From: a virus
Taxonomy: Duplodnaviria; Caudoviricetes
DNA: 64,000 nucleotides
Strand: one strand, 5' to 3'
Virus record (IMG/VR): IMGVR_UViG_3300008113_000019
Span: 32,001 to 96,000 of that record
The notes under the pieces were generated by a model that did no database searches, was not told the DNA's origin, and saw nothing but the letters and a program-made list of their open reading frames with translations. Below are positions 23,510 to 53,091 of the stretch, piece after piece (positions within the stretch are counted from its first letter, which is position 1; every line of letters begins with the position of its first letter). The position numbers and the translations under genes are program-made.

Positions 23510-24336
23510 GATTTAAGTTGCTCTATAAACAATTTTTCTACTTCCGGAAGATACGATTTTTTGATGAGATTGATGTATCTCTTCAGTTCGTTTTTTTCTT
23601 GCTCATAATCATAAGCACTTACCCTACTCCAAAAAGCATTTTCTGTCGTTGGGATATTAACTTTGAGTGTGTTTATTTCTAATAGACCTTCACCAACAGA
23701 AACTTCAAACTCTTCTTCTACGTGCTGGACGATGACAGAATTTCTTGTAGTATCGATAGAAACAACTGTTGCCCGTGCTTCAGTAGATGACTGAGATATA
23801 ATATCACCAGCATCAAAAGCAGCGACATTGGCCGATAAGACTAACTCTAAAATTTTATTAGTACTTACTGTCCAGTCTTCTTTCACTCTTTCATAGCCAG
23901 CAATTTGATTGTTAGCACCAAGGCGTGGTTTCCAATATTTTTTGATTGAAGCTTCAAGAGATTCATAAGTGGCTTCTGTGATTAAGCTTTCGTCTGCAGC
24001 CCAATCGTTTCTATAAAATAAAGTTTTTTCTCTAGCTGATGCCAGTGTTCCATACTTTCCAATAATGTATTTTTCAAAATCGTCTGCGCTCAAATAATAA
24101 TCATGGTATGGATCTATAACGCTATTTGAAAGATAGATCATCCAGTCATATTGTGATGAGTCGTAGTATGTGTAAGAAAGAAAATCAGGCCGAATCAAAT
24201 CGTCTTGAATCACATAATCAAAATTTGAATAGATGTCTCTCTTCGCTTCGTCTGTAAAGTCAACACGTGCTAAAATGTTTTTAGCAGGAGCACCATTATA
24301 ATCTACAAGAGGAAATCTCGAAAAATATCTAGACAT
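23506..24336 (-). CDS. gp53: baseplate wedge subunit gp53
   Basis: YFSRFP start, RPD.LS..YY and YDYE...NE.KR.I motifs. Confidence 0.88.
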   Translation of the reverse strand: MSRYFSRFPLVDYNGAPAKNILARVDFTDEAKRDIYSNFDYVIQDDLIRPDFLSYTYYDSSQYDWMIYLSNSVIDPYHDYYLSADDFEKYIIGKYGTLASAREKTLFYRNDWAADESLITEATYESLEASIKKYWKPRLGANNQIAGYERVKEDWTVSTNKILELVLSANVAAFDAGDIISQSSTEARATVVSIDTTRNSVIVQHVEEEFEVSVGEGLLEINTLKVNIPTTENAFWSRVSAYDYEQEKNELKRYINLIKKSYLPEVEKLFIEQLKS

Positions 24337-25583
24337 TATTGGTTAGCCTTATCTGCTGCTGCGCTGGCTGTGTTTATTAATTTGGTTCCATAATCTACTG
24401 CTTCGCTAATTGCACCGGTCAATCCTGGAAACTTTTCACTTGCCGCGCCTTTTAACTCTTCATAGATTTTGGTTGCTTGGTCATTGCGTTCACCAACTTT
24501 TGTTCCATAATCATATGCAGTTTGAATTTCTGTTTCCATAAAGTCAATTGAAATTTGAATAAACGTTGGCTGTTTAGTTCCTCTAAAGAATGCTGGCAAC
24601 CCCTGTGGAGAATAGTTTACAGAAATATTTTGAATCAAGCATGGTTTGAATACAATAAGATCTTCTCCATTTTTCTTCCATGGATACAATTCAAGATCGA
24701 CCAGAGGCGGATATTGAAGAGCAGCTGTGCCAAGATTGCTAAAAGCAGGAAGTGAATACTTTTTCAGTTCATAGATAATTTGCTGAAGTTGTCGACTCTC
24801 AAGAGCATTTCTTGGCGAAAATGTCCACTGAAAACTGTGTGTTCTCATTTGAACACCGGAGAAAATTGCTTGCAAGTGAGGATTCGGAACTGCTCCGCCA
24901 AACTGACCAAGTAGATCTCCGTACTGGCCAGCCATTTGAACACCTTGTGCATACGCCAGCGCAGCGAGTTGATTCTTAGCTCTGTCTCCTCCACCTTCAC
25001 CGCCTCTAAAGATATCAGTACCGATGTCAGCCAATCCGCCAGCTAAAACACCAGTCCCCTTTGGATCAATATTATTTGCAAACTGTTCTTTTAGTTCTCG
25101 AGGAACCGGAAGAATAAAATTCTTAAGCGCTTTACGAACCGCAACGGTTTGTGGACTTGGTCTAGAGTATTCTGTAAACTTCATAAGCATATAATATTCG
25201 CCAACATCTGGCGGAAATTGAAGGAGACCTTCGTTTGCTTGAACTTTACTATTAATCGATCGTTGCGCATCAACCACAGTTTCAGCACCGCGGTTCAGGA
25301 TATTATCCACGCAGTCTCTTGAAGAAACTCTATTCTGTTCTGCCGTAGATGTTCCAAAGAATCTATCGGCCTGACCAACAGAGAACGCGTCTCCAAATCT
25401 TGCAGAAAGCTCGCCGGCGATATTATCAGAAAGACCAACTTTTTTAAGGCCTTTTGCAAATGCATCTTCTACAGCATTTTCTAGTTTCTGCTCTACTTTA
25501 TTCACAACACTATCAACTAGCCGGTTAGCAATACCACCTAGGTCTTTTTTGAAGTTGTTAATATTGAGTTTGATAAGGGCCAT
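24336..25583 (-). CDS. gp48: baseplate tail-tube cap gp48
   Basis: NPHLQAIFSG..MRTHSFQWTFSPRN..ES and I.FMETEI motifs. Confidence 0.82.
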   Translation of the reverse strand: MALIKLNINNFKKDLGGIANRLVDSVVNKVEQKLENAVEDAFAKGLKKVGLSDNIAGELSARFGDAFSVGQADRFFGTSTAEQNRVSSRDCVDNILNRGAETVVDAQRSINSKVQANEGLLQFPPDVGEYYMLMKFTEYSRPSPQTVAVRKALKNFILPVPRELKEQFANNIDPKGTGVLAGGLADIGTDIFRGGEGGGDRAKNQLAALAYAQGVQMAGQYGDLLGQFGGAVPNPHLQAIFSGVQMRTHSFQWTFSPRNALESRQLQQIIYELKKYSLPAFSNLGTAALQYPPLVDLELYPWKKNGEDLIVFKPCLIQNISVNYSPQGLPAFFRGTKQPTFIQISIDFMETEIQTAYDYGTKVGERNDQATKIYEELKGAASEKFPGLTGAISEAVDYGTKLINTASAAADKANQ

Positions 25584-25611: not shown

Positions 25612-25623
25612 TATTTATAAATA
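25612..25623. promoter_or_regulatory. overlapping divergent T4-type late promoters (TATTTATAAATA)
   Basis: Palindrome giving TATAAATA on both strands between divergent gp48 and gp4. Confidence 0.85.
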
Positions 25624-25628
25624 GAATC

Positions 25629-26069
25629 ATGGCATACAAAGGCTTTTTCAAACCATTGAACCCTTCAAAGTATAGAGGCGATCCCACGAACATTGTTTAC
25701 CGTTCGAGATGGGAACTCGTTTACATGTCTCGATTAGATAAAGATCCAAACATAGTCGAATGGGCAAGTGAGGAACACGTAATTCCTTATCGCTCTCCTA
25801 TCGACAATCGAATACACAGATACTTTGTCGACTTTTATATTAAAAAGAAAATGCCAAACGGCAAGACGAAGTGTGCACTGATCGAAATCAAGCCAAAGCA
25901 TCAGACTGTCCCACCGAAGGTAATAAATAAACCAAACAAGCGTTATATCAACGAAGTGATGACGTGGGGCGTAAACGAAGCCAAATGGAAAGCAGCCACA
26001 GAATTCTGTAAAGACCGTGGCTGGGATTTCGAGATACTAACAGAAGATCATCTTAATCTAAAGTTTTAG
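25629..26069 (+). CDS. gp4: head completion nuclease gp4
   Basis: KYRGDPTNIVYRSRWE, RYFVDF, EIKP, NEAKWKAA motifs. Confidence 0.93.
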   Translation: MAYKGFFKPLNPSKYRGDPTNIVYRSRWELVYMSRLDKDPNIVEWASEEHVIPYRSPIDNRIHRYFVDFYIKKKMPNGKTKCALIEIKPKHQTVPPKVINKPNKRYINEVMTWGVNEAKWKAATEFCKDRGWDFEILTEDHLNLKF

Positions 26070-26424
26070 ATGGATATATCCAAGTCCATGAACCATCTGG
26101 TCTTGTATATTTTTTTCTGCCTTTACATGTTTCAGACATTTTTTTCTTAGATTCTTCGTTTCTTTTCCAATTTTTGCCTAATGCACCGCTTGGCCGACCG
26201 GTTCGGCTTTTGCTCATTTTTTCTCTAGAGCTTTTGGTGTGCCTTTTACCATACATATTATTTAAATGGCCAGATTGGTCATTGTATTTTCCAAGTGGCT
26301 CTATTTGCTTACAAAATTCTTCATATGTTAAGTCAAAAACATATTCAGGCGTATTAAAGGCACGATTTTGCGCCTCAACGTCTGCAGACTTGAGATACTC
26401 GTAAAGTTCTTTATAAATATTCAT
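26053..26424 (-). CDS. NUMOD3-motif protein, homing-endonuclease derivative with no recognisable nuclease domain
   Basis: MYGKRHTKSSREKMS and a second NUMOD3-like repeat; own late promoter and RBS; antisense between gp4 and gp2. Confidence 0.75.
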   Translation of the reverse strand: MNIYKELYEYLKSADVEAQNRAFNTPEYVFDLTYEEFCKQIEPLGKYNDQSGHLNNMYGKRHTKSSREKMSKSRTGRPSGALGKNWKRNEESKKKMSETCKGRKKYTRPDGSWTWIYPSKTLD

Positions 26425-26489
26425 ATGCTGATTCCCCTCACAGAATTAGAGTAGTTGGGATGGCGGTCCGCGAACTACAATTATTTATA
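26425..26489 (-). ncRNA. late promoter plus structured 5' leader motif, copy A
   Basis: TATAAATA (26489-26482), then stems GTAGTT/AACTAC, GGA/TCC, TTC/GAA; covaries with copy B at 51410-51473. Confidence 0.7.
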
Positions 26490-26505
26490 TTTACAAAGGT
26501 TTAAA

Positions 26506-35721: not shown

Positions 35722-35981
35722 TGTATCCTCTAATCTTAAATGATCCTGGCAACCAGAGACTGCTTCGAAGGCATCTCAGCCTAACAGTTTGTCCGTCGCT
35801 ATGAGAAGATACAAAATGAAATAACGAAGGTATCTTCCATCCATTTCCCTCTTACTGGAAATGCAAAATCATTATGGTTTCGTCGGTAGTATCTTAAAGA
35901 TACTGCTTTCTAGCCCTAAGACTTGAAGCTTTTGTAAGAGTCAATGGAGGTGTCAACCTCCGTCGCGATATAATATTTATA
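35722..35981 (-). ncRNA. long structured late-promoter leader (candidate cis-regulatory RNA or ncRNA)
   Basis: TATAAATA at 35981-35974 followed by ~250 nt with at least six hairpins and no convincing ORF. Confidence 0.5.
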
Positions 35982-35989
35982 CCATTAAG

Positions 35990-36280
35990 TTGCCGGATTC
36001 TGTTTCGAGGCTCCGGCGGGCCCAATGCTAGCCTCAAGCGGCTAGAGCAAAGGCAACGTCATTATCGTTTGCGTTTACGTTTAGTGGCAACTTTGCCAAG
36101 CAATCAGTCTCGAACCGCCTTATTCTGCGTGCATCGATTCCCAGTAACACCCCCATCAACTACACTGCCCGTAACGTCCGCGGTCTATATCTTGTCAATT
36201 CAAGACCACAGTGTAGATGGTGGAGGTGGGGGGATTCGAACCCCCGTCTACTCCGCTTTTATTGTTGATTGTCAACAACT
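35990..36280 (-). ncRNA. ssrA: two-piece (circularly permuted) tmRNA
   Basis: T-arm GGTTCGAATCC plus CACCTCCACCA ending 36218; stem-closed intervening segment 36217-36155; GGGGGTG 5' end at 36154 with G3.U70; tag ANDNDVAFALAA* at 36072-36034; outer ends approximate. Confidence 0.93.
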
Positions 36281-36289
36281 GATAATCTA

Positions 36290-36320
36290 TATATACATCA
36301 ATTTGTTTTTAATGTACACA
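36290..36320 (-). promoter_or_regulatory. early-type promoter for tmRNA
   Basis: GTGTACA-17 nt-TATATA, same family as other copies. Confidence 0.6.
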
Positions 36321-50804: not shown

Positions 50805-51224
50805 TCATAAAGTCTCCTGTTCGGGGTTAAAGAGTAGAGCCTTGACATGACTCGCTTGAATCTTACAACTTACCCAGTTATTGTAAAATTTTGGATCTAG
50901 TATTGCATCATGATCAAAAATATACTTTGTTTCAAAGTAATTGCACTCACCACGAGATTTACATAAACGAAGAATAGTTCGTTTGAAGTTCTCTTTGCCA
51001 AGCTTTTCTATGTCTGCCTTTAAGGCGGGAGAAGACCCGTAATAGTCGTCCCAATCGGACTCTACACGGATCTTCTTCCTTTTACCTTTGACAGTCTTGT
51101 ATCCAGCTTTTGTAAGATACTTACGACCTATGTATTTCTTACCATTAGTCAGATTTTCAATAAGGTATACGAAGCCATACCATTCATCAGTATTTGTAAA
51201 TTCTTTGCCTTCGTATATCCACAT
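50805..51224 (-). CDS. small GIY-YIG nuclease (conserved near nrdB in T4-like phages)
   Basis: GFVYLI.N...GKKYIGRK, ESDW..YYGS, F.R.IL, YN. Confidence 0.85.
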   Translation of the reverse strand: MWIYEGKEFTNTDEWYGFVYLIENLTNGKKYIGRKYLTKAGYKTVKGKRKKIRVESDWDDYYGSSPALKADIEKLGKENFKRTILRLCKSRGECNYFETKYIFDHDAILDPKFYNNWVSCKIQASHVKALLFNPEQETL

Positions 51225-51256
51225 AAATCTATTCCATAACAAGCGGAAAGATTTAT

Positions 51257-51394
51257 TTATTCGTCTTCATCTTCATCATCAAGAAGTTCTTCTGGGAGAT
51301 CCTCACCGCAGTAAGGACAGAAGAGAGGAGAAAGTGTGCAGTCTGATACTAATTTAAATTCCTCCTCGCAGGAGGGGCAAGTTGTCCAATCCAT
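51257..51394 (-). CDS. 45-aa zinc-ribbon protein
   Basis: CPSC...CPYC and acidic tail; start moved to MDWTT. Confidence 0.75.
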
Positions 51395-51409: not shown

Positions 51410-51473
51410 TATAAATAAGTGTGGTTCGCGGTCTCGTACACCCAACCACTCTAATGCCATTGGGAGCACCAGC
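51410..51473 (+). ncRNA. late promoter plus structured 5' leader motif, copy B
   Basis: TATAAATA (51410-51417), stems GTGGTT/AACCAC, GGT/ACC, TGC/GCA; covaries with copy A. Confidence 0.7.
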
Positions 51474-52019
51474 ATGAATATTTACTATATATATGCCTAT
51501 TTAAGATCTTCAAATAATACTCCCTATTATATAGGGAAAGGTAAAGATGATAGAGCTTATGCAAAACATAAAGGCATCTCTACTCCAAAAGATCGTTCTA
51601 AAATTGTTATATTAGAATCTAATTTAACTGAAGTTGGAGCATTTGCTTTAGAGCGCCGTTATATCAAATGGTATGGTCGTAAAGATCTAAAAACAGGAAT
51701 ATTATTAAACAAAACAGATGGTGGAGAAGGATCTTCTGGTTTAATTCATTCAAAGGAAACCAAAGCAAAAATATCACAATTAAAAACCGGTTCTAAAACT
51801 AAACCCCGCAGTGAAGAATTTAAAAAATTATTAAGTGAAAAATATAAAGGCAAACCTCTTTCAGAAGAAACAAGAAGAAAGATGAGCGAAGCCGCTAAGA
51901 GACGTAAAACTCAACCAAGATCTGGTTGTAAACATTCAGAAGAAACTAAAGCAAAAATAGCTATAGCTAAAATGGGAAATCAATGCGCTAGAAAATATCC
52001 TAAAGCTGAAAGCCTTTGA
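51474..52019 (+). CDS. free-standing GIY-YIG-like homing endonuclease with NUMOD3 repeats
   Basis: YIYAY...PYYIGKG...RA, E...I..YGR, L.N.TDGGEG, HS.ETKAKI repeats; AT-rich; antisense, overlapping the nrdB stop. Confidence 0.88.
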
Positions 52020-53091
52020 AGGTGTTTTCGTCTACGTCTTTCTTGACTCCGCCAATTACATAACTAGTAATCTCTGTTTCCTGTGGAGCAACCTGAACCT
52101 CTGCACCGGAGATCCACTTCTGCGTCCATGGCAGTGGATTTGCACCCGGCTTACCGCTTAGTCCAATTGCACCCATGCGCTTCGCGGCGATATGATCTAC
52201 ATAGTCACAAAGTAGCTGTTCGTTCAGTCCGATCATAGATCCATTCTTAAAAAGATAATGTGCCCACTTCTTTTCTTGTTCGACAACTTTGTAAAACATG
52301 TCAATGCACTCATGTTGTGTCTCTTGCCGAATTTGTTCAAAGTCCGGATCCTCCTTTGGGAGAATTTTGAGCAGTTGCTGAGTTGAGGCAAGATGAACAT
52401 TCTCATCCCGTGCAATGAGCTTGATGATTTTCGCATTGCCCTCCATTTTCTTAACCTCCGCAAAAGCCCAGCTACATGCAAACGAGACATAGAATCTTAC
52501 CCCTTCAAGAGCATTGACAGCGTTGAGGCACATCCATAGTGCCTTCTTGTGATCATAGTAGTCGAATACGGTCTTGCCAGTGTCAGCTGATACAGGCTTC
52601 GTGTTTAGCTTGATAAGGTCATCGTAATACTTAGAAATGTCCTTAGCGCAGTCTACGATCTCAGGGATCTCCAGCATTTCATCAAAGACTCTGGAAGGAT
52701 CAGAATAGACGTTACGAATGATATGAGTATAGGAACGGGAATGAATGGTTTCAAAAAACGTCCAAGTCTGGATCCAGGTTTCCAGCTCAGGAAGCGAACA
52801 TATAGGTAGAAAAGCTGCAGATGGAGCACGGCCCTGGACAGAGTCAAGGAGGATCTGGCGTTTGAGATTAGACGTGAATATGTGCTTCTCATGCTCGTTC
52901 AATCCTTTGAAGTCCTTGCCGTCTCGCGAAAGGTCAACCTCTTCCGGTCTCCAGAAGAAACCCAGTTGCTTCTCGGTCAGCTTTTCAAACGTACTGTAGC
53001 GTTGCTTATCATAACGAGCAATATTCACCGGCTTCCCGAAGAAGCAGGTCTGTTCAGTAGCATCAAACTTTTCGTTTGAAAAAACGGTCAT
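52000..53091 (-). CDS. nrdB: ribonucleotide reductase class Ia beta subunit
   Basis: [41 protein letters not shown]. Confidence 0.97.

Follow-up and report, generated by a model that had tools for sequence, protein, structure and literature searches.

A widespread, covarying two-hairpin element at the start of phage homing endonuclease cassettes, possibly the core of a two-way late expression module

We describe a structured element that occurs twice in a 64,000-nucleotide stretch of phage DNA (the window), which comprises bases 32001-96000 of the 106,898-base-pair (bp) uncultured virus record IMGVR_UViG_3300008113_000019, and which carries the element each time at the 5′ end of a free-standing homing endonuclease gene. 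The source virus is a T4-like myovirus whose gp2, the DNA end protector, distantly resembles gp2 of the Sinorhizobium phages of the phiM12 group, and it is present in the metagenomes of 12 studies, most of them labelled as freshwater or lake water. The minus strand carries copy A, from 26489 down to 26422, and the plus strand carries copy B, at 51410-51476; the two follow a common plan (Table 1). Read on the minus strand, copy A consists of a late-promoter box TATAAATA (26489-26482), ATT, GTAGTT, CGC, GGA, the loop CCGCCA, TCC, C, AACTAC and TCTAA, followed by TTC, the loop TGTGAGGG, GAA, TCAGC, AT and the nuclease start codon ATG (26424-26422). The homing endonuclease genes (HEGs) downstream of the two copies, HEG A and HEG B, both begin MNIY, both match NUMOD3 and both lie antisense to their host genes: the 3′ end of HEG A overlaps the last codons of a gp4-like gene (25629-26069), and the end of HEG B overlaps the nrdB stop codon (52000-53091). 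A first-pass annotation of the window, made from the letters and a list of reading frames, had reported these sequences, protein starts and overlaps, and all of them agree with our coordinates. It had also placed copy A in the context of gp4, which holds for the 3′ end of HEG A but not for the leader, which abuts gp2.

The element is readily distinguished from the rest of the genome. A strict pattern for the larger hairpin matches two places in the window, copies A and B, and has no match in 100 shuffles. A covariance model of the element (R1) scores the two copies at 74.5 and 71.5 bits, with the next-best match in the window at 13.4 bits, and the whole record contains only these two copies. 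With Rfam 15 at gathering scores, the window matches only two models of transfer-messenger RNA (tmRNA; 35988-36316), and nothing at the element. Even at E ≤ 10, a search of five element loci returned six weak matches, none at the motif coordinates, in keeping with the earlier statement that the element fits no known RNA family. The single-sequence folding energies of the sense strand are unremarkable for the two window copies (z = 0.00 and −0.77), and the evidence for structure is comparative.

Table 1. Coordinates of the two copies of the element and of the associated features in the window
Feature	Position	Strand	Basis
Copy A outer late-promoter box TATAAATA, serving the nuclease gene	26482..26489	-	sequence
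Copy A long hairpin: stem 1 GTAGTT/AACTAC, bulged C, G:C, bulged C, stem 2 GGA/TCC, loop 26461-26466	26451..26478	-	sequence, model, family covariation
Copy A linker TCTAA, short hairpin (nuclease ribosome site in loop), TCAGC	26427..26450	-	sequence, model
Copy A inner box, perfect TATAAATA within nuclease codons 2-5, facing the nuclease promoter (putative promoter)	26412..26419	+	sequence, synonymous-site conservation; promoter activity inferred
HEG A: 123-aa ORF (MNIYKELY...), one NUMOD3 match	26053..26424	-	Pfam
Cassette A, bounded by the nuclease-less allele	26052..26505		contigs of three runs
Copy B late-promoter box TATAAATA	51410..51417	+	sequence
Copy B long hairpin: stem 1 GTGGTT/AACCAC, bulged C, G:C, bulged C, stem 2 GGT/ACC, loop 51433-51439	51421..51449	+	sequence, model
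Copy B TCTAA, short hairpin with ribosome site, CCAGC	51450..51473	+	sequence, model
Copy B inner box AGTAAATA, weaker since the Tyr codon is TAC	51479..51486	-	sequence
HEG B: 181-aa seg-like protein (...PYYIGKGK), two NUMOD3 stretches	51474..52019	+	Pfam

We collected relatives of the two copies from uncultured viral contigs with two loose sequence patterns and the covariance model. The first pattern fixed only TATAAATA, CGC, TCTAA and CAGC, left the stems free and matched at least 117 viral contigs; by eye, 113 of the 117 contigs listed bear the whole element, and L063, L085, L095 and L102 were excluded. After removal of duplicates, 91 distinct copies were aligned with plain MAFFT, an alignment not fitted to structure (A1). 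A second alignment (A3) holds the 102 copies that R1 matched in 92 of 119 loci, of which 91 match by construction and 11 are new. The second pattern, in which no promoter was fixed, gave 101 new loci; R1 was run on 100 of these (all except L430) and returned 113 matches, 101 of which are distinct and absent from the first set (A4). Among the matches listed, the family numbers at least about 200 distinct copies.

Across this family the pairing is kept while its letters change. In A1, 94.7% of the cells are paired and 13 of the 16 pairs have changed on both sides; in A4, the corresponding values are 93.3% and 14 of 16, so that the compensatory changes first seen in the three stems of the window copies are real. 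The covariation score is 0.650 for A1 against 0.200 when shuffled, and 0.555 for A4 against 0.149, with none of 500 shuffles reaching the observed score in either case; with the partner columns slid, it is 0.01-0.13 overall (0.05-0.13 for A1). As a negative control, the first pattern was applied to 596 billion bases of prokaryote genomes, and none of the 119 stretches listed there matches R1 (E ≤ 0.01). Named carriers were found by protein search followed by R1: Variovorax phage V45v66 bears the element (66.9 bits; PV558790.1, 85,994-86,076), and Pseudoalteromonas phage vB_Psh_XG4 has a weaker, partial match (39.1 bits) that keeps only the long hairpin with CGC...C. R1 has no match in the cyanophages S-SRM01, ACG-2014f and S-N03, which encode related seg-like genes, and a blastn search with a consensus-like copy against 50,697 phage records has none either. 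The element is a genuine, widespread and strongly covarying structured element. Two or three copies lie within a few kilobases of each other in L419, L351, L013 and 12 more loci, and no fewer than three lie on the 360-kb contig from which L017 and L362 derive.

The family alignments define the anatomy of the element. The long hairpin is one helix, made of a six-pair stem 1, a bulged C, a G:C pair, a second bulged C, a stem 2 of three to five pairs and a loop of 6-9 nucleotides (nt). The CGC and the single C had been taken as invariant and unpaired; two bulged C remain unpaired, but the G of CGC pairs with the opposing C, and this pair turns to A:T in two copies (L061:1455 and L054:8408). The linker TCTAA joins the long hairpin to a short hairpin of 3-5 bp that carries AGGA or GGAG in its loop and 3′ side, after which come (U/C)CAGC, 0-3 nt and ATG. 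The ends of the long-hairpin loop (A3 columns 29 and 37) alternate between U.G (38 copies) and C.A (37 copies), and a G.U is therefore always present there on one strand or the other; U.G and C.A are two isosteric wobble geometries. A corrected mutual-information scan detects no pairing or pseudoknot beyond the 16 pairs and this one loop-closing position. In T4, the late box spans positions −13 to −6 (PMC2988020). This spacing rule puts the predicted sense start at base 3 of stem 1, which is a purine in 98 of 102 copies and sits downstream of two pairs that still covary. The element is therefore not entirely within the late nuclease mRNA, which corrects the earlier description of it as lying wholly downstream of the late promoter.

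We now turn to the question of which strand folds. Read on the nuclease strand, the 16 pairs of A3 comprise 1537 Watson-Crick, 70 A.C or C.A and 4 G.U or U.G combinations in 1632 cells, and those of A4 comprise 1494 Watson-Crick, 97 A.C and 9 G.U combinations in 1616 cells. Because an A.C read on one strand corresponds to a G.U on its complement, the wobbles that RNA tolerates fall on the antisense strand of the nuclease gene. Across A3, A.C is seen at seven of the 11 long-hairpin pairs and at all five short-hairpin pairs. The long hairpin contributes 16 A.C at its seven positions with no G.U; the pattern is most evident at the outer pairs of the short hairpin, pair 56:102 being C:G in 33 copies, U:A in 30, C.A in 28 and U.G in 2. 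When the A3 copies are divided by the orientation of the neighbouring gene, the ratio of A.C to G.U is 35:3 with a divergent neighbour and 12:0 with a tandem one. Folding energies point the same way: in each of 100 copies the antisense core has the lower energy, averaging −17.8 kcal/mol against −13.2 kcal/mol for sense, and after a composition control with 40 shuffles the mean z is −2.11 for antisense and −1.27 for sense, with antisense lower in 82 of 100. These comparisons suggest that the selected fold lies on the strand antisense to the nuclease gene. What had been read as the leader of the nuclease mRNA is then probably the mirror image of the selected RNA.

A second feature of the family lies inside the nuclease genes themselves. 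Across 84 downstream open reading frames (ORFs), M1, I3 and Y4 are the sole nearly invariant columns. Codon 2 encodes amino acids of a dozen kinds, and its third base is T in 87 of 88 ORFs (background 36%), including 33 of 33 codons from fourfold-degenerate families; ATT accounts for 63 of 79 Ile codons (background 49%) and TAT for 77 of 82 Tyr codons (background 75%). The TATTTAT that these codons spell is the reverse complement of the late box ATAAATA and faces the nuclease gene's own promoter. In the sample in which no promoter was forced (n = 148), this downstream box is TATTTAT in 101 copies, TATTTAC in 15, TACTTAT in 11 and TATATAT in 9, with one-mismatch forms of TATTTAT making up about 37 further copies. 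Among the same 148 copies, the outer sense box is TATAAATA in 68, GATAAATA in 31, CATAAATA in 8 and AATAAATA in 5; NATAAATA occurs upstream in 112, and the 33 counted as having none are mostly of the NNTAAATA type by reading of the listing. For comparison, ATAAATA forms the core of the late promoters of T4 (TATAAATA, in which A is accepted at −13 and occurs there in 9 of 50 sites; PMC2988020) and of cyanomyoviruses (NATAAATA; PMC2984593). Seg-like relatives without the leader begin MGKYYTYAYLR, MFYTYAYLR or MVNPNRFYTYAYLR, with no x-I-Y add-on, and in six copies the inner box is preserved in another reading frame. The shared M-x-I-Y start, previously listed as a property of the proteins, is thus largely a nucleotide-level late-type box. 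Applied to this box, the T4 spacing rule predicts that an antisense RNA would start at the G of GCUG, where conservation on that strand begins, and 76 of 102 copies fit without an insertion. An intrinsic terminator on the antisense strand was also sought, and the scan called none at either window copy; a UAUUUAUA tract begins 3 nt past the bulged stem.

The outer and inner boxes vary separately. The 21 copies with an altered downstream six-mer (TATATA in 10, TACTTA in 9 and TATCTA in 2) still have TAAATA as the sense core, and 8 of 8 copies with a differing sense core and an intact downstream six-mer retain TATTTA. Among those copies there are no complementary variant pairs between the outer and inner boxes, and the outermost box positions form Watson-Crick pairs in 41 of 136 cases against 40 expected, that is, without covariation. 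This lack of compensation leaves a long-range helix between the boxes unsupported, and supports two independent boxes. The loci L343, L375, L398 and L430 have GTCAACAAAAATGTCC/GTCAACAAAAA where the late box is expected and retain TATTTA after the start codon. Within the window, perfect TATAAATA boxes number 11 against 2.79 expected, and the outer and inner boxes of copy A are both among them. The inner box of copy A has its predicted start at 26425, 81 nt ahead of the gp2 GTG, and the outer box, when read on the plus strand, is an A/U-rich tract immediately before the gp2 ribosome site. At copy B, an opposite-strand zinc-ribbon ORF begins at 51394, 15 nt from the late box, and its AGGAAA site abuts the box. 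GTAAATA-type boxes are seen at the sense position of other copies.

The genes downstream of the element belong to several nuclease families. Among 84 downstream ORFs of at least 100 amino acids (aa), Pfam recognizes NUMOD3 in 40, GIY-YIG in 19, SegE_GIY-YIG in 3, HNH in 5, HNH_3 in 3 and HNH_5 in 2, so that the expected association with NUMOD3 and GIY-YIG genes extends to the wider search, with HNH proteins added. Residues 7-95 of these ORFs fall into 12 clusters: classic GIY-YIG (33), seg-like (17), NUMOD3-only (12), HNH (9) and 13 others, the last being clusters of five and two with six singletons. Identical hairpins are common to different ORF clusters in six cases (four short-hairpin and two long-hairpin sequences), and one ORF cluster of 35 members has 32 distinct hairpins. 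Some ORFs fall short of 60 aa (first set, 7 of 93; second set, 13 of 113), and the first-set leaders of such ORFs still score 76-92 bits. HEG A has no recognizable catalytic domain. It belongs to the NUMOD3-only cluster, whose 12 members have DNA-binding repeats and no recognizable nuclease domain, and which may be decayed endonucleases or DNA-binding proteins of another role.

We next consider what lies upstream of the element. In the first sample (n = 102), 54 copies have a divergent neighbour, 19 a tandem one, 22 neither and 3 both, and 4 have too short an upstream sequence; in the second (n = 103), the numbers are 35, 18, 41, 3 and 6, respectively. In the first sample, a divergent neighbour is an opposite-strand ORF of at least 60 aa that starts 6-40 nt past the box (median 16), and a tandem neighbour is a same-strand ORF whose end falls between −5 and +31 nt; four of these ORFs use the box's own TAA as their stop codon. 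The AGGA or GGAG of a divergent neighbour often touches the box. A divergent gene that starts this near the box leaves no room for another promoter, and because its ribosome site abuts the box, its mRNA must contain the antisense of the element. A fractured-gene arrangement, as proposed by Dassa et al., was considered for the tandem class and set aside, since the upstream ORFs look complete as judged by their ends.

The borders of one cassette can be read directly. Nuclease-less contigs of the runs X15, X4 and X20 join 26051 to 26505 with 16 other letters between, at junction depths of 179 in X15, 33 in X4 and 5 in X20, which is an RNA library. The nuclease gene itself has a depth of 24 in X15 and 7 in X4; since these are lower than the junction depths, the nuclease-plus allele is the minor one in both. 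By hand reading, gp4 of the nuclease-less allele ends L-G-L-K-F, and its stop codon shares a G with the gp2 GTG (26506). In the window, positions 26052-26069 instead hold the recoded last five gp4 codons (L-N-L-K-F, with 8 of 15 bases differing) and the stop codon, and positions 26490-26505, also part of the cassette, hold a new ribosome site AAAGG for gp2. The existence of the nuclease-less allele therefore indicates that cassette A adds not only the nuclease gene and its leader but also both boxes and a new gp2 ribosome site. It bears out the view that the element marks a family of mobile nuclease cassettes. Insertion of cassette A alters its probable target site; the heavy recoding of the gp4 end is as expected if that site spans the gp4/gp2 junction. 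An empty site was likewise sought for copy B, where a single one of 80 nrdB-relative loci has the motif and comes from the same phage, and no clean border was drawn. In relatives whose nrdB is 87-89% identical (88-89% in the nearest), an ORF of 111-140 aa stands at the place of HEG B, between nrdB and the zinc-ribbon gene (L133, 3454-3876; L135, 3601-3936).

From the family and its covariation, the strand bias of its pairing, the nucleotide-level box, the borders of cassette A and the geometry of the neighbours, which are direct observations, we infer how the inner box might fire and how an antisense RNA might exist and act. In our preferred reading, to which we assign a probability of about one half, free-standing homing endonuclease cassettes of T4-like phages carry at their 5′ end a portable module for late expression in both directions, and the element is its core. 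An antisense RNA from this module would span the nuclease start site and, in about half of the copies, continue into the adjacent host gene. The nuclease strand of the module would provide a late-promoter box, a ribosome site in a small hairpin and a start codon. On the opposite strand, the inner box in codons 2-4 would fire late, and its RNA would begin at GCUG and traverse both hairpins; this would be the RNA whose base pairs evolution preserves. Being fully complementary to the nuclease ribosome site and start codon, it would throttle nuclease synthesis, as the IS10 antisense RNA does for transposase. Where a host gene starts just past the box, the same RNA would be the leader of that gene, with its ribosome site supplied by the cassette, so that insertion would not silence the neighbour. 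Selection acting on the phage rather than on the selfish gene could then account for the better-kept antisense fold.

A bolder version of this proposal centres on the nuclease genes. Here, a dedicated, structured cis-antisense RNA would start from the late promoter in the nuclease's first codons and throttle translation of the mRNA by forming kissing complexes or duplexes with its mirror-image hairpins, and the module (promoter, leader and four codons) would have been grafted onto unrelated nuclease families. We regard this version as tentative and, judged from the sequence comparisons, somewhat doubtful; if true, this would be the first case of homing endonucleases governed by a conserved antisense-RNA family, and lytic phages would have an analogue of RNA-OUT. 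In IS10, an outward promoter just inside the transposase gene produces RNA-OUT, a short, folded antisense RNA with bulged stems that covers the ribosome site and the start codon, and fast-pairing antisense RNAs such as CopA of the CopA/CopT pair have bulged stems and mirror-image loops. In the element, the late-box-like TATTTAT at a fixed place in the first codons, conserved at synonymous sites and perfect in copy A, is a candidate for such an outward promoter. The element resembles the IS10 arrangement in that its antisense strand forms the more stable stem-loop and is, by position, complementary to the ribosome site and start codon. It differs in that there is no homology, the promoters are phage late promoters and the predicted antisense RNA may run into a host gene.

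Several observations weigh against the two-way module. The ribosome site and start codon on the nuclease strand are plainly functional, so that a sense RNA exists and may need the fold too. The simple scan calls no terminator after the antisense hairpin that would define the end of such an RNA. The inner box is imperfect in copy B (AGTAAATA) and in about a tenth of the copies (TACTTAT), mostly those with HNH genes. The excess of A.C could owe something to strand-biased mutation pressure; the copies are related, so that the cell counts exceed the number of independent events; and A3 and A4, though not A1, were fitted to the model. A close divergent gene is present in only 89 of the 195 copies with enough upstream sequence, and a role as host-gene leader therefore cannot be general. 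Finally, the RNA library X20 gave no transcript support at the element on either strand: its only contigs that touch the site represent the nuclease-less allele, with one contig joining across and none on the nuclease-plus leader, and X20 is accordingly uninformative on expression of the element.

The first of these points leads to the alternative that the fold acts in the nuclease mRNA itself, either by binding a protein (for example, in autoregulation through NUMOD3) or by presenting or masking the ribosome site. In its favour, the short hairpin always carries the ribosome site in its loop or 3′ side, with a constant spacing to the ATG, and 93-95% of the cells still pair on the sense strand. 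NUMOD3 is shared by more of the ORFs than any other domain (40 of 84), and I-TevI of T4 autoregulates at its own late promoter (PMC2988022). However, the wobble bias is reversed from that expected of a sense RNA, the two samples together having 167 A.C and 13 G.U. Two covarying pairs also precede the predicted late start. On the sense strand, the outer three pairs of the short hairpin form in only 77-82% of cases, but on the antisense strand they would be almost completely paired; the nucleotide-level TATTTAT would also be left unexplained. We therefore consider a sense leader unlikely. A related possibility is a temporal gate of the T4 style, in which UAUAAAUA in read-through transcripts from upstream pairs with the UAUUUAU(A) of codons 2-4, shuts the entire leader and blocks initiation, and late transcripts, which lack the 5′ arm, are translated. 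The two boxes are exact reverse complements and pair with each other in the centroid fold of copy A, and such gating is established for the T4-type endonuclease genes I-TevI, segB and Aeh1 mobE (PMC2988022); Dassa et al. interpret their hairpins in this way (PMC2677866). Against it, there is no compensation in the about 30 copies in which one box varies and no covariation at the outer positions, the helix would consist of 7-8 A:U pairs closing a large multiloop, and 89 of 195 copies have an upstream neighbour on the opposite strand, which leaves no same-strand read-through to gate. Since it also leaves the antisense wobble bias of the inner hairpins unaccounted for, we judge the temporal gate improbable.

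The conserved pairing could instead act in DNA, as a hairpin or cruciform extruded from single-stranded or supercoiled DNA during recombination, homing or promoter opening, or as operator sites or PeSL-like patches of homology for the swapping of ORFs. A long hairpin almost without wobble (97-98% standard pairs) would suit such a role, as would the sharing of identical hairpins by unrelated ORF clusters (four short-hairpin and two long-hairpin sequences); G.T is moreover the best-tolerated DNA mismatch, and the strand bias would fit a single folded DNA strand. In contrast, the element keeps a tight, fixed register with the promoter boxes, ribosome site and start codon on both strands, and its stems vary so freely that homology patches are at most 8 nt. 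No nuclease encoded in these cassettes is known to require a hairpin substrate. We rate a DNA-level element slightly below the temporal gate, as an improbable explanation. The earlier suggestion of a small ribozyme or nuclease-guiding RNA draws on nothing beyond the association with nuclease genes and the invariant unpaired bases. No ribozyme or other family of Rfam matches at E ≤ 10, the mutual information reveals only two hairpins and one loop-closing position, and the partner proteins are protein-only homing endonucleases of several unrelated folds; with nothing pointing to either function, we consider both very improbable.

Among these readings, the two-way module remains the one that we favour, and it can be set beside other control systems of phage endonuclease genes. 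The closest precedent is the work of Dassa et al. (2009), who reported hairpins together with TATAAATA and a pair of conserved, mutually complementary motifs in the 5′ untranslated regions of free-standing endonuclease genes from ocean and lake metagenomes (15 of 16), and interpreted the hairpins as control or sequestering of the ribosome binding site (PMC2677866). Their loci come from environmental T4-like phages (the GOS 'fractured genes'), and their hairpins are probably the same or a sister element, a likeness drawn from their description and not from sequence. The available text of that paper describes no covariance model, strand analysis, inner box or link to M-x-I-Y. The claim of novelty thus survives in part: no Rfam family covers the element, but similar hairpins were reported in 2009.

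Late promoters combined with hairpin control are known for the T4-type genes I-TevI, I-TevII, I-TevIII, segB and Aeh1 mobE (PMC2988022). As in those genes, where expression is late-restricted, the element places TATAAATA directly upstream of a free-standing or intron endonuclease gene and has a structured leader around the ribosome site. It differs in where the ribosome site sits: a 3-5 bp hairpin located entirely 3′ of the box holds the site in its loop or 3′ side, and the site is not buried in a long stem that starts, with its 5′ arm, ahead of the late start. The element also differs in consisting of two bulged hairpins in about 200 copies across nuclease families, with antisense-kept pairing and a second, facing box. 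According to the same source, the T4 ORFs segG (for gene 32), segA, segE, mobB and mobC embed promoters for neighbouring host genes. The element would share with these the principle of a cassette that carries the promoter of the adjacent host gene, favouring retention and limiting harm. In the T4 genes, as described there, the promoters have the same direction and lie anywhere in the ORF; the box of the element is on the opposite strand, fixed in codons 2-4 and part of a conserved module.

Two further systems of T4-like phages invite comparison. CfrI of cyanophage S-PM2 is an antisense RNA of about 225 nt that runs across a homing endonuclease gene and its neighbour (PMC2984593). Kinship with CfrI was considered and rejected: R1 has no match in S-PM2 (AJ630128.1) at E ≤ 10, and a box-to-ATG pattern gave one unrelated site. 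The PeSL/PmSL cassettes, which flank variable genes, combine an early (sigma-70) or middle promoter with a terminator-like stem-loop (PMC4122927). They resemble the element as short, repeated modules of promoter and stem-loop, and they may mediate shuffling. Unlike them, the element has a late-type box and hairpins that are not called terminators on either strand, and the available text of PMC4122927 describes no link to late promoters or endonucleases. The main text of a 2023 screen for viral structured RNAs mentions no such motif (PMC10690425), and in our literature searches we found no earlier description of the two-hairpin family, its antisense signature or the inner box.

What is new is therefore a defined family with its strand signature and inner box; what is of a known kind is a regulatory leader of phage homing endonuclease genes. 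Large lytic phages have free-standing homing endonucleases as their main selfish genes, and the harmlessness of these to the phage has been explained only in a few T4 and Aeh1 cases. A compact module of about 110 bp, common to about 200 cassettes and at least 12 clusters of nuclease N-termini, offers a new RNA family for Rfam-type curation and a sequence tag for mobile nuclease cassettes in metagenomes. The inner box would explain the M-x-I-Y start that these proteins share. The nuclease-plus and nuclease-less alleles of one freshwater phage, found in many public metagenomes, provide a natural polymorphism for study. If the antisense reading is true, it would extend transposon-style antisense control to homing endonucleases.

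Other features of the window and of related contigs accompany these results. A SegE-type GIY-YIG gene (Pfam 1.3e-35; 50805-51242, minus strand) adjoins cassette B and lacks such a leader; it is kept at the same place in the nrdB-relative contigs, and similar SegE-type genes lie divergently upstream of the element in L032, L048, L069 and L098. The tmRNA at 35988-36316 on the minus strand is a permuted, two-piece molecule of the alphaproteobacterial type (RF04321, 95.2 bits; RF01849, 60.2 bits), which hints at an alphaproteobacterial host, and a perfect TATAAATA lies beside it at 35974-35981. At 25612-25623, between a 415-aa ORF (24336-25583, minus strand) and the gp4-like gene, two overlapping perfect late boxes stand back to back (TATTTATAAATA). 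The plus-strand box of this pair ends 5 nt before the gp4 ATG, and the T4 rule would give a leaderless mRNA. The product of the gp4-like gene itself (25629-26069, plus strand), a head completion protein, matches a TnsA-like endonuclease N-terminal family (1.6e-22).

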